30,295 bases of DNA, taken from Bacteroidota bacterium (GTDB taxonomy: Bacteria > Bacteroidota > Bacteroidia > AKYH767-A > 2013-40CM-41-45). The translations under genes and the position numbers were made by a program. Location: the NCBI GenBank assembly GCA_046090385.1, contig JBJSZR010000602.1:1-30295 (forward strand). Direction: 5' to 3'. Under the pieces are notes generated by a model, which was given only the letters and a program-made list of their open reading frames with translations, was not told the DNA's origin and made no database searches. Each line of letters starts with the position of its first letter. Positions within the stretch are counted from its first letter, which is position 1. This document shows positions 341 to 22,150 of the stretch, one piece after another.

Positions 341-2356
341 TCAGACTTCCAGCAGGATTTTTGGCAAAGAAACATAAAAGGATGTTCCCTTGCCGGCGGA
401 TGTCTCGAATCGGATGGATCCACCCATCTTTTCGAGCGCATTCTTGACAACGAACAATCCAAGTCCGGAACCATCCGATTCCTGGTGGCCACGATAGAAC
501 ATATCGAAAATACGTGGCCGTATCGATTCCGGAATACCCTCCCCGTTGTCAGTAACCTCGAGCTCGATGTGCGTAGCGAGTTCACGGGCTGCAATACGGA
601 TCCGCGGTTCGGTTCTACTGCAGTAATTGATGGAATTATGTACGAGATTTTTCAAAACAGATTGAAGCAAGACTCTATCTGTCTGCACTTCCGTATCCTC
701 ATCGATAAGGATATCGAATCGGATTTTAGGAAACTTAGGAAGATGTTCCAGCTCTGCGAGGATCCTGTCGAGAAAACTTCTCAATCCTATAGAGCTTACC
801 TTGCTCGCTCCCTTGCGTGTCCGTGCCAGCTCTATAAGCTCCATCAATGTCCGATCAAGCCGTTGGGCACTGGACTCGATCATACTGAAATAACGCGAGA
901 TTTGAGGATCATCAGTGTCCATCTGACCCAAGTGCACGACACCAAGCATACTGGCAATGGGTCCCTTCAAGTCATGTGAAGCCTTGTAGAAAAAAGTATC
1001 AAGCTCCTGATATGCCTCGCGAAGCTCCTTTTCGGTTGATTTACGCTCAGTGATATCGGCCTGTACGCCCCAGGTCCTGATGAGGCGACCATTTTCAATG
1101 ATCCCAATATTGTTGTTGAGCATATAGCGGACATTGCCTTCGCGGTCATGTTCTTTTGACTCCGAATTACTGATACGATAACCGGACATGACATAATGCC
1201 TGAGCATGGCGTGAACTTTTTCGCGATCCGAATCGGAATCGTACAGATAAAAATCCCTGAGCGGTTTTCCGATAAGGTCTTTTGATTCGTAATAGCCGTA
1301 CAACCTGGCCATGAAGTCATTGCACTCGGTGATGATACCCGATTCAAGCAGGCGTTCCACTTGTTGGTCGATAGGCATGTTCACTTGTACAGGTTGGAGA
1401 TAATCGATCCGCCAGATCCCGATTGCGCTCTGGTCGATGAAGGTCCTGTATCCCTCTTCCCGTTTCTTCAGCAGTTCCTGTGTCTGCTTGAGTGAAGAGA
1501 TATCAGTGAACACCAACATGGTACCGCTCCTGCTTCCATTTTCGTCAAGATACGGCGCCCCGTTCACACGAATGGAGAGGGATGATCCGGAAGCAGGCGC
1601 TATATGGAATTCAGCCCGTGAATTCTCTCCTGAGTCCAATTTCCCGAAAAAGTCTTTCGCCGACGCATCAGGTACAAGTTCGCGTATATCCTTTCCTTTC
1701 AGTTGGCTTTTCGAATATCCGCTGATACGGCAGAACTGTTCGCTTACGGAAACGATCTTCCAATCCGAATCGGCGTAGATAAGTCCGTCGTTCATGTGTT
1801 CAACGAGAGCAGAAAATCTGTTTTCCTGATTGGCTATCTCACGGTGGAACTCCCTTTTACGCTTTTGGATCTGGTCTGAAAGAAGCGCACCTGAATACAA
1901 GGTGATGATCGCAACGGTATATTGAGGCTCCCATCCGCGTTTCACCAACATCAAGACAAGCATGAGCGTTGTAAGGAAGAAAATGAATGCGACAGATTTA
2001 AAAACACGATCGAATACGAGAGAGAAAGTGAATATCGAGATAGCGACAGGAAGCAACACCATGATTTCGAAATCTCGCTGGTACGCGACAAAAACCGCCC
2101 ATACATGCAAAACAGCGATGGTGAAATCGGTCACGGTATGAAAATGTCGTTTTACCGCATTGTTGTAGTAGGAAAGTAGAAAATTGATCGTGAGCCCCAT
2201 TGATACGATCAAGCCTGTCAACAGTATCCAACCATCATGATATAAGAACTCGAATAGGAATCCGAGTGCCGTCACCACCAATGCAGCAAACACCGTGAGA
2301 TAACGGAGATTCTGCAGTTGTTGCGACTTCAATTTATCCTGAAAACTGTAAATCAT
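341..2356 (-). CDS. Membrane-bound PAS-PAS sensor histidine kinase (671 aa)
   Basis: About 5 hydrophobic N-terminal helices and two PAS-like segments. Kinase motifs: H-box ASHDLKGP, N-box NLVHNSINY, D/G1 DNGEGI, G2 GSGLGL. Confidence 0.93.
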   Translation of the reverse strand: MIYSFQDKLKSQQLQNLRYLTVFAALVVTALGFLFEFLYHDGWILLTGLIVSMGLTINFLLSYYNNAVKRHFHTVTDFTIAVLHVWAVFVAYQRDFEIMVLLPVAISIFTFSLVFDRVFKSVAFIFFLTTLMLVLMLVKRGWEPQYTVAIITLYSGALLSDQIQKRKREFHREIANQENRFSALVEHMNDGLIYADSDWKIVSVSEQFCRISGYSKSQLKGKDIRELVPDASAKDFFGKLDSGENSRAEFHIAPASGSSLSIRVNGAPYLDENGSRSGTMLVFTDISSLKQTQELLKKREEGYRTFIDQSAIGIWRIDYLQPVQVNMPIDQQVERLLESGIITECNDFMARLYGYYESKDLIGKPLRDFYLYDSDSDREKVHAMLRHYVMSGYRISNSESKEHDREGNVRYMLNNNIGIIENGRLIRTWGVQADITERKSTEKELREAYQELDTFFYKASHDLKGPIASMLGVVHLGQMDTDDPQISRYFSMIESSAQRLDRTLMELIELARTRKGASKVSSIGLRSFLDRILAELEHLPKFPKIRFDILIDEDTEVQTDRVLLQSVLKNLVHNSINYCSRTEPRIRIAARELATHIELEVTDNGEGIPESIRPRIFDMFYRGHQESDGSGLGLFVVKNALEKMGGSIRFETSAGKGTSFYVSLPKILLEV

Positions 2357-2722
2357 GAGCGGATGTGCATCGTTATACGCTCATCATCGGTGAAAAGGAT
2401 ACGATTACAACCATCCTGAAGGTCAAAAAGTGGATGATACACTCGAGGATACAGCTCCGATGCGTTGACGTTCAATCTGCCAACATCATGTTGATAATGC
2501 AAGATCACTAAGCATACGAATGCAGTATTCACAAAAGAAAAAAGAAGCGAATAAAATCATCAATGTGCTGAACACGGCTACTGATGGGATGTTCAGAGCG
2601 TCGAAGAACTCTGTGACAATCGATTGATGCATGCTTCGATGCTCGAAAAGATGATTCACGTAATCAACAATCCGATGTGAAAAAAAAATAAGGTGTATGA
2701 AGTGTAACCTTTTTTTATTTAC

Positions 2723-2730
2723 TATGTTTG
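2723..2730 (+). promoter_or_regulatory. Bacteroidota housekeeping-sigma -7 box (TATGTTTG) for the micropeptide gene
   Basis: Exact match to TAnnTTTG, 31 nt upstream of the ATG at 2762. No clear -33 TTTG. Confidence 0.6.
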
Positions 2731-2761
2731 AATAGTCATAACAATCAAAAAACCAACAACA

Positions 2762-2836
2762 ATGGCAAAAGCAAAGAAAGCTGCTAAGAAAAAAGTAGCT
2801 AAGAAAGCTAAGAAAGCTGCTAAGAAGAAGAAGTAA
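2762..2836 (+). CDS. 24-aa Lys/Ala-rich basic micropeptide (histone H1-tail-like), MAKAKKAAKKKVAKKAKKAAKKKK
   Basis: ATG 2762 to TAA 2834-2836, hand translated: 14 Lys, 8 Ala, 1 Val, 1 Met. It has an A-rich leader (ACAATCAAAAAACCAACAACA), an upstream TAnnTTTG box and a downstream terminator. It is below the ORF-track size cut-off. Confidence 0.8.
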   Translation: MAKAKKAAKKKVAKKAKKAAKKKK

Positions 2837-2870
2837 TCTTAGCGCTTCACCGTTCTAGCAGCGGTCAGCG

Positions 2871-2901
2871 AAATCCCCCGATGAATCATCGGGGGATTTT
2901 T
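2871..2901 (+). terminator. Intrinsic terminator downstream of the micropeptide gene
   Basis: Perfect 13-bp inverted repeat AAATCCCCCGATG / CATCGGGGGATTT with a 3-nt loop, ending in TTTTT. Confidence 0.85.
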
Positions 2902-2927
2902 CATTTGTAATCATACTTGAAATCTGC

Positions 2928-3959
2928 ATGGAATCAACTGCAAAATGGAACCTGAAGCCCCTAAGGCTTCCTTTACGGTATACATGGAAAATATCCAGGA
3001 ATGCTACGGATGAGAAGACGAACCTCATCGTGTCCTACTCCGAAAATGGCAGAACCGGTTACGGAGAAGCGGCTCCCAACATCCGGTATGATGAAACACC
3101 GGAGATGCTGACCGATCAATTTGAAAAACTGCTTTACAAACTTGAACAGGGCGTAGTCGATGTCCACCGGCTACATGAAACATTTGAAAAGGAAGGAACA
3201 GCCTATGCTCTACGTTTCGCCATCGAATCGGCCTGGTTGCATCAACAACACCGTTGCGAAAGGGAGAGTCTTCAGAAATATCTTGAGGTTTCTTATCGTA
3301 ACGAAGTACCTACTTCTTACACCATTCCGATCATGGAACCAGGACTTGTCAGAGAATTCTATGAAAAGCAACGATTGGAACGCTTTGAGTCGATAAAACT
3401 CAAAATAGACCGGGATTCTGCTGCTGATCTCCTGCATGAACTCATCTCCTGCGATCCCGGAAAGATCCTGCTCGATGCGAACGAGGCGTTCACCGATGTA
3501 GAAGATTGTATTCGTTTCCTTGAAAGCATACGACGTATCCCACTTGAGTTGGTGGAGCAACCGCTACCAAGCAGACTGATGGACGAAGCTGTTTACTTGA
3601 AAAAATACTCTCCGTTCAAGCTGTTTGCCGATGAAGCGGTGACTCACGATCCGGATATGGATCATGTGGTTGCCGCGTATCACGGCATCAATATGAAACT
3701 GATGAAGACGGGGGGCTACCTACAGGGAGTCAGGATACTGAAAGAGGCCCGTAAAAGAGGACTTCGGACAATGATCGGTTGCATGGTAGAAACCACACTT
3801 GGGATCTCGTCCGCGCTAACGCTGACGGGACTTGCTGATTACACGGACCTGGACAGTTTTCTTTTGCTGAAAGAGGAGCCCTTCCGCATTTTGCAGGAAA
3901 AAAGCGGGAAGCTGACTTTCCAAAACCCGCAAATGCAGGGAATGATCGAACTTGACTGA
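2928..3959 (+). CDS. Dipeptide (L-Ala-D/L-Glu-type) epimerase, enolase superfamily MLE subgroup
   Basis: KLK catalytic motif, metal ligands DANE / EQP / ADE, second Lys in MKLMKTGG, plus MIGCMVET and DLD motifs. N-terminal ISRN resembles the substrate-binding Arg loop. Confidence 0.85.
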   Translation: MESTAKWNLKPLRLPLRYTWKISRNATDEKTNLIVSYSENGRTGYGEAAPNIRYDETPEMLTDQFEKLLYKLEQGVVDVHRLHETFEKEGTAYALRFAIESAWLHQQHRCERESLQKYLEVSYRNEVPTSYTIPIMEPGLVREFYEKQRLERFESIKLKIDRDSAADLLHELISCDPGKILLDANEAFTDVEDCIRFLESIRRIPLELVEQPLPSRLMDEAVYLKKYSPFKLFADEAVTHDPDMDHVVAAYHGINMKLMKTGGYLQGVRILKEARKRGLRTMIGCMVETTLGISSALTLTGLADYTDLDSFLLLKEEPFRILQEKSGKLTFQNPQMQGMIELD

Positions 3960-21724: not shown

Positions 21725-22150
21725 TCAAATCTCACCCATTCGTTTCAATCGTGCAATGAGTCGCCAGTAAGCTTGGCCATAATCAACAAAAACCTCCTCA
21801 CCCTTTTTTATTTTACGCGTGGCCGATATGTAGCACTTTTTACCCTTGGTGATATATTCAGAGTTGTTCCTGCAGCCCGCCACACGCACCAGACCACGTG
21901 CATCATTGGCATATCTGCCTTTCGATCTCAACGTCCTTAATCCATCAATCGCCCACGTTTCATTGATCTTGAAAATATATGCGTTATAACCATCCTCTTC
22001 CTTCACATCACGCCATTTGCACAATCTGCCCTTGTATTCAGTTATTCGGGAACCTTTAGGAATTTCAACCGTGGTGAACAATCCTTTACCTGCCTGCGGA
22101 ATAGTCGATTTGCGGATGCGGAGATGACGCTCGTAAGTTTTCAGTGGCAT
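21725..22150 (-). CDS. SET-domain protein (putative protein-lysine methyltransferase), 141 aa
   Basis: STIPQAGKGLFT (GxGLF SAM motif), RYANDA (variant of RFxNHS) and IKKGEEVFVDYG..YW (ELxxDY). No post-SET Cys cluster. Confidence 0.9.
   Translation of the reverse strand: MPLKTYERHLRIRKSTIPQAGKGLFTTVEIPKGSRITEYKGRLCKWRDVKEEDGYNAYIFKINETWAIDGLRTLRSKGRYANDARGLVRVAGCRNNSEYITKGKKCYISATRKIKKGEEVFVDYGQAYWRLIARLKRMGEI

Follow-up and report, generated by a model that had tools for sequence, protein, structure and literature searches.

A conserved, transcribed micro-gene with a predicted 24-residue lysine/alanine product in freshwater Bacteroidia

Introduction

Can an open reading frame of 24 codons, nearly all of them for lysine or alanine, be a gene in its own right, and what would a cell do with such a product? 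This question is raised by a locus in a contig from family f1, a family of uncultured freshwater Bacteroidia. The window analysed here is the whole stretch of 30,295 nucleotides, and a first-pass annotation made from its letters had described a complete mini-gene in it, consisting of a -7 box, an A-rich leader, an ORF and a 13-bp terminator, and had proposed that annotation pipelines would probably overlook this stand-alone gene. All of these parts were located as described (Table 1) and the proposal was borne out, the micro-ORF being unrecorded by any gene caller. Lys/Ala-rich tails of histone H1, chlamydial Hc2, AlgP and a SWIB-domain protein encoded in the same genome as the locus are thought to bind polyanions electrostatically. 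Because its ORF is too short for gene callers, its composition is filtered in homology searches and trypsin would destroy it, a peptide of this kind escapes genomics, homology search and standard proteomics, and the micro-gene is a sign that annotation in general overlooks genes of this type.

Results

The peptide translated from the micro-ORF consists of 14 lysine, 8 alanine, 1 valine and 1 methionine residues, which agrees with the earlier count of 14 lysines in 24 residues and no acidic ones. Its net charge is approximately +14 and its calculated mass ca. 2.6 kDa, or ca. 2.5 kDa with Met1 removed. Arginine is absent from the peptide and occurs at most once in its relatives; large hydrophobic residues, aromatic ones included, are likewise missing. 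Among the short ORFs of the 2.67-Mb genome, the micro-ORF has the most basic product. Alanine is encoded by GCT or GCA in all 8 cases and in 203 of 222 cases across family f1, compared with 56% genome-wide, and AAG accounts for 57% of the lysine codons, compared with 61% in the ribosomal-protein cluster and 42% in the genome. The exclusive use of GCT and GCA claimed in the first-pass annotation is confirmed, while the high expression which it deduced from these codons is weakly supported by the codon choice of the micro-ORF.

Table 1 Parts of the micro-gene unit and the gene that follows it (positions in the window)
Feature	Position	Strand	Description
Upstream element	2661-2684	+	rAAATCAACA-N6-TGTK and, 3' of it, an A tract; contains a partial palindrome (AACA-N6-TGTT)
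Promoter core	2701-2730	+	Invariant GTGTAACC-TTTT, T-rich spacer, -7 box TATGTTTG at 2723-2730
5' leader (predicted)	~2737-2761	+	A-rich, unstructured, without Shine-Dalgarno sequence; putative transcription start
Micro-ORF	2762-2836	+	24 codons followed by TAA; encodes MAKAKKAAKKKVAKKAKKAAKKKK
Small hairpin	2843-2870	+	Just 3' of the stop codon; nearly invariant, with a CCGC...GCGG core in the majority of orthologues
Intrinsic terminator	2871-2901	+	Perfect 13-bp stem (2871-2883 / 2887-2899), 3-nt loop, U run
Dipeptide-epimerase-like gene (enolase superfamily)	2928-3959	+	Outside the unit; starts 27 nt past the terminator

A transcript of the unit was looked for in environmental RNA and found as a discrete RNA in three metatranscriptomes from freshwater/aquatic samples. 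Among RNA contigs placed on 2300-3300, coverage is confined to 2754-2873 and depth is zero over the flanks 2300-2741 and 2878-3300, where depth, being taken from assembled contigs, is a rough guide only. With the flanks silent, a short and abundant RNA is a better explanation of this coverage than carried-over DNA. The contigs start at 2754-2766, and others extend into the terminator of a close relative. One contig matches over 115 nt at 100% identity, unique UTR sequence included, and carries an adapter at its end. Of the whole locus, environmental RNA yielded the micro-gene alone.

Using a DNA search of 60 relatives, matches were obtained in all 36 genomes of family f1. Reading of the loci verified an intact micro-ORF in 31 of these, covering genera g1 and g3-g10 (9 of 10 genera), and four further g8 genomes show the same DNA match. 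In case of the single g2 genome (91% complete), the match is the tail of a SWIB-domain gene and the micro-gene was not found with this query. In-frame homologues are thus present in 31 genomes of nine genera, with frame, ATG and TAA kept. Orthologous ORFs range from 17 to 40 codons; every one of them starts with ATG GCA and ends with TAA, and the indels among more than 36 distinct sequences, including single-codon ones, comprise whole codons only. Pairwise differences number 2497 at third codon positions, 512 at first and 858 at second positions, the latter two counts being inflated by repeat misalignment. When the comparison is restricted to the first 10 codons and to sequences with a common MAKAKKAAKK, variation affects 5 of 10 third positions and 0 of the 20 positions that are first or second in their codon (Fisher p = 0.0018). 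After inclusion of orthologue L025, which carries amino-acid changes in this part, the numbers are 6 of 10 and 3 of 20 (p = 0.03), three orthologues with indels being left out of this count. The unit is conserved in related genomes far more than expected by chance. Its DNA identity across genera is 74-98%, compared with protein identities of 46-63% for the flanking epimerase-like protein and 45-78% for the flanking histidine kinase, so that conservation of the micro-gene unit exceeds that of the protein-coding genes beside it and selection on the unit, judged from these comparisons, appears to be stronger. Based on the substitution pattern, we regard it as very probable that the micro-gene is a real, translated gene.

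Structure is also predicted for the RNA itself. The 3' UTR fold has a predicted energy of -32.2 kcal/mol (z = -5.8 relative to shuffles), and compensatory double changes occur in 7 of 11 consensus pairs of the terminator among 36 sequences. The stem of the small hairpin reads CCCCG...CGGGG in one genus-g5 genome, and the hairpin is missing in orthologue L033. Pairing potential between the coding region and the UTR is also seen in the fold. One could thus imagine a non-coding, purine-rich and structured small RNA with a regulatory role, in which the open frame is incidental. The short, discrete, terminator-ended transcript, the conserved 3' hairpin and the fold of the whole micro-gene RNA (z = -7.5 relative to shuffles) are in line with this idea, which is nevertheless contradicted by the three-base periodicity of substitutions, the invariant start and stop codons and the whole-codon indels described above. 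Further, only one frame is open at the micro-ORF and no Rfam family was matched: the Rfam 15 covariance models gave nothing at gathering score, and matches at E <= 1 were at chance level (17-18.5 bits compared with cut-offs of 50-100). We therefore consider a purely non-coding RNA to be highly improbable. In addition to encoding a peptide, the transcript could still serve an RNA-level function that would be reflected in the conserved 3' hairpin and the modelled pairing of coding region and UTR. The possibility that the ORF is a fragment of a longer gene was checked and rejected, since conservation across genera includes the stop codon, the UTR and the terminator, and nothing beyond them is coding in frame.

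The consensus of the Bacteroidota -7 element is TAnnTTTG, and the -7 box TATGTTTG fits it. TGTAACC, TTTT and TAnnTTTGA show little or no variation among the aligned genera. The combination of TGTAACC and a subsequent TAnnTTTG box occurs twice in the genome, namely in the micro-gene promoter and once on contig C332. In 28 distinct orthologous sequences, the upstream element keeps a fixed distance to the promoter; in the window, it and GTGTAACC-TTTT together span 2661-2712. A weight matrix derived from the 28 sequences scores 33.6 at 2661-2684 and 16.7 at the runner-up site in the genome; a regulon search with this matrix found no second site in the genome and consequently yielded no functional lead. 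The element is possibly a site for a regulator or an architectural protein, and part of it presumably resembles the IHF core WATCAA. The leader is kept in the orthologues (ATAACAATCAAAAAC...) and is unpaired in the predicted fold. Translation from leaders without Shine-Dalgarno sequences is described as typical of Bacteroidia (PMC6847099). If the product acts as a cationic counter-ion, the dedicated, unusually conserved promoter together with the unique upstream element would suggest that the cell doses its charge balance in a regulated manner.

In nine genera, the gene order is histidine kinase (minus strand), micro-gene (plus), epimerase-like gene (plus) and AspRS (minus). The epimerase-like gene matches Pfam MR_MLE_C, with 3IJI as best solved relative (E 3.7e-32) and the L-Ala-D/L-Glu epimerase 1JPD among further matches. 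It adjoins the micro-gene in 29 of 29 loci of these genera and is absent from the g5 loci. The distance from terminator to epimerase start codon is 25-46 nt in many genomes and 95-240 nt in g7, and no TAnnTTTG box was seen in this gap (2901-2927 and the orthologous gaps). With a gap this short and devoid of such a box, the epimerase-like gene may depend on read-through of the terminator. This arrangement invites the interpretation that the micro-ORF is a leader peptide with an attenuator, whose translation senses tRNA charging or ribosome speed and thereby sets read-through into the epimerase-like gene, because ORF and terminator lie directly upstream in the same orientation at every one of the 29 loci. 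However, in genus g5 (L168:4000, L169:3963) the whole module of upstream element, promoter core, ORF, hairpin and terminator lies elsewhere, upstream of an unrelated T9SS-secreted Sortilin/BNR-like protein of 933-942 aa, and epimerase, kinase and AspRS are all missing from the surrounding 4 kb. This arrangement speaks against the micro-ORF being a leader peptide of the epimerase-like gene. The wide gap in g7 likewise speaks against attenuation. In minimum-energy folds of full and crudely truncated transcripts, no pairing that would sequester the 5' arm of the terminator was seen, and the small hairpin and the terminator coexist. Moreover, the N-terminal residues are constant while their codons vary synonymously, and comparable stand-alone Lys/Ala peptides of other Bacteroidota adjoin PolX-like, DinB, LpxD or CotH genes. 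Taken together, attenuation seems very unlikely to us. The epimerase-like gene probably receives read-through transcription without a functional tie to the peptide; the synteny across nine genera and the gap of 25-46 nt nevertheless leave room for a possible regulatory role of the unit. In case of the g5 peptides, glycine or serine replaces some of the alanines (e.g. MAKKKKAAKKGGKKKGGKKRKK).

A SET-domain protein encoded in the window (141 aa, 21728-22150, minus strand) was considered as a methyltransferase 'writer' and rejected, as there is no co-occurrence signal. A SET homologue is widespread in the order, being present in 50 of 61 relatives, including family f5 where the micro-gene DNA query matched nothing, and it was not found in 4 f1 genomes with the micro-gene, three of which are 99-100% complete.

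We also asked whether the peptide corresponds to a known small ribosomal protein. The genome encodes bS22 as a 28-aa ORF, MPSGKKRKRHKMATHKRKKRLRKNRHKK, on the minus strand of contig C435 (position 1471 counted along that strand). This ORF is almost identical to F. johnsoniae bS22 (7JIL chain 5, E 8.5e-10), and NCBIfam holds no model matching it. bTHX is encoded by a 31-aa ORF on contig C222 (TIGR04560 at E 5.1e-14). Since both proteins have separate ORFs elsewhere in the genome, the 24-aa peptide is neither of them, in line with the first-pass annotation, which did not recognise it as either. bL38 was rejected as well; it is a protein of 5.6 kDa and is encoded after bL28 and bL33.

The peptide could still be another specific small ribosomal or ribosome-associated protein that occupies a defined rRNA site in the way of bS22, eL41 or bTHX. 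Tiny and extremely basic, it is overlooked by gene callers and seems to be strongly expressed, and its lysine codon choice is near that of the ribosomal-protein cluster. bS22 was itself overlooked until cryo-EM (PMC7797042). The similarity to bS22, bTHX and eL41 extends to size, charge and invisibility to gene callers, but these proteins are Arg-rich, fixed in length and conserved in sequence. In contrast, the micro-gene product is nearly devoid of arginine, contains no aromatic or large hydrophobic residue and varies from 17 to 40 aa through gain and loss of repeats, and this length variation argues against a stoichiometric ribosomal protein. Further, the genome already has bS22 and bTHX, and the searched passages of the papers on the ribosomes of F. 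johnsoniae and P. gingivalis, species that may or may not carry the micro-gene, give bS22 and bL38 as the only extra small proteins. On these grounds we regard a specific ribosomal protein as improbable.

Database searches with the peptide returned nothing. No match was obtained in the PDB (phmmer, E <= 10) or in Pfam and NCBIfam, and a search of 5.8 billion proteins gave 3204 word-sharing candidates of which none scored. An exact look-up of 17 peptide variants, including relatives of 45-150 aa, found none in a collection of 15 billion proteins; such absence is weak evidence because even the long variants are missing, and it fits non-annotation. In a six-frame protein search covering 301 genomes from the phylum, not even the genome of the query was retrieved, which makes this blank result uninformative. 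The low-complexity composition of the peptide defeats homology searches. Literature on Pollutiaquabacter and on lysine-rich small proteins or microproteins in bacteria was also searched, and no paper describing such a peptide was found.

The same genome also encodes a SWIB/MDM2-domain protein of 121 aa (contig C427, L002:1228-1593, minus strand) that starts with a Lys/Ala-rich N-terminal tail, MATKKAKKKAPAKKAAKKKVVKK... The tail of the SWIB gene and the last bases of its leader share 73-82% DNA identity with the micro-gene, and the two genes have a similar start and leader end. In contrast to the SWIB gene, the micro-gene ends after 24 codons, has its own conserved UTR and terminator, and lacks a SWIB domain. 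From this similarity, the micro-gene may have arisen from a SWIB-type 5' end. The composition that the first-pass annotation had likened to H1-type Lys/Ala tails does match such tails, that of the genome's own SWIB protein included.

Discussion

Our analysis establishes that the unit is autonomous, conserved and transcribed and that its substitution pattern is of the coding type. In kind, the product is closest to the H1-like Lys/Ala proteins. With the chlamydial histone H1-like protein Hc2 (HctB; PF07382) it shares short Lys/Ala-rich repeats, the absence of acidic residues and a presumed charge-driven binding of DNA, and Hc2 is naturally polymorphic in length because lysine-rich repeat units are gained or lost (PMC2848022). 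The two differ in size, with 165-237 aa for Hc2 compared with 17-40 aa for the micro-gene peptides. The PF07382 profile did not match the 24-aa and 40-aa forms at E <= 10, and it scored 20.1 bits and 7.4 bits with a 62-aa and a 150-aa Lys/Ala protein of the sister families, respectively, relative to a cut-off of 40. Because low complexity defeats homology searches, the likeness to H1-like proteins is one of composition and not of demonstrated descent. AlgP, PhaF, BpH1 and the mycobacterial HupB tail carry polycationic AKK/KPAA-type repeats resembling the micro-gene peptide; in the AlgP-type proteins, however, these repeats are domains of much larger multi-module proteins, whereas in the micro-gene the repeat is the entire product. 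AlgP associates with polyphosphate granules (PMC9239181), and by analogy polyphosphate is one candidate polyanion partner of the peptide.

We lean towards the view that the product of the micro-gene is a polycationic micro-protein, autonomous and strongly expressed, which in kind would be a minimal counterpart of the H1-like Lys/Ala proteins. The conserved Bacteroidota-type promoter would give rise to a transcript of ca. 165 nt that comprises an unstructured A-rich leader, the 24-codon ORF, the small 3' hairpin and the strong intrinsic terminator. Presumed translation of the ORF would yield the 24-residue Lys/Ala peptide with a charge of about +14, from which Met1 is probably removed. The peptide would be expected to lack a fixed fold, as it is too short and, with 17-40 aa among relatives, too variable in length. 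Repeat-driven length variation and the lack of a hydrophobic or aromatic anchor favor non-specific electrostatic binding and argue against a fixed structural site. Presumably abundant, the free polycation would thus, by analogy, be predicted to bind polyanions electrostatically, namely DNA, rRNA or mRNA and possibly polyphosphate. In other words, the peptide probably forms a minute cationic coat on DNA or RNA, as judged from its known relatives in kind. The micro-gene is best filed as a minimal stand-alone form of the known Lys/Ala histone-H1-like kind for which no database entry was found. If the product is a free polycation, it would be the smallest bacterial version known of the histone-H1-like principle and, if this is true, a missing player in the charge balance of nucleoid, ribosome or polyphosphate in abundant freshwater and wastewater Bacteroidia.

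When 185,579 species genomes were scanned for the MAKAKKAAKK coding-start pattern, at least 119 stretches matched. Among the matches listed are family f1 members labelled as Bacteroidota, Bacteroidia or Flavobacteriales MAGs, 'Candidatus Pollutiaquabacter aromativorans' from the same genus as the window, stand-alone Lys/Ala/Pro peptides of 37-69 aa from Chitinophagaceae in other gene contexts, and N-terminal tails of SWIB-domain, HU and uS11 proteins. In Chitinophagaceae, SWIB proteins and stand-alone peptides alike begin with MAKAKKAAKK. We tentatively entertain the idea, without yet leaning towards it, that stand-alone oligo-Lys/Ala micro-genes are a widespread unannotated class of encoded polycations, recurring in Bacteroidia and Chitinophagia and acting as minimal H1-like counter-ions for nucleoid, ribosomes or polyphosphate.

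Longer proteins of this composition occur elsewhere in the order, in the sister families f4 and f6 (L155-L164), where Lys/Ala/Pro-rich proteins of 62-209 aa were found. One unpublished genome (G050) is among those counted for f4, and none of the claims depends on this genome alone. Several of these proteins have short conserved non-repetitive heads, e.g. MMNNSMI... and MKQNMEMK...GVTRVIGFKM.

The stand-alone Lys/Ala/Pro peptides of the Sediminibacterium type (L052, L046, L103) and of Puia (L106) are 37-57 aa long, and their leader and 3' UTR are conserved within each group. They are encoded just upstream of a PolX-like (HHH_8/PHP) gene or beside DinB, a recurring DNA-polymerase neighbourhood that may be due to chance. 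One RNA contig joins the same coding start to a leader typical of the Sediminibacterium-type micro-genes, which therefore appear to be transcribed too.
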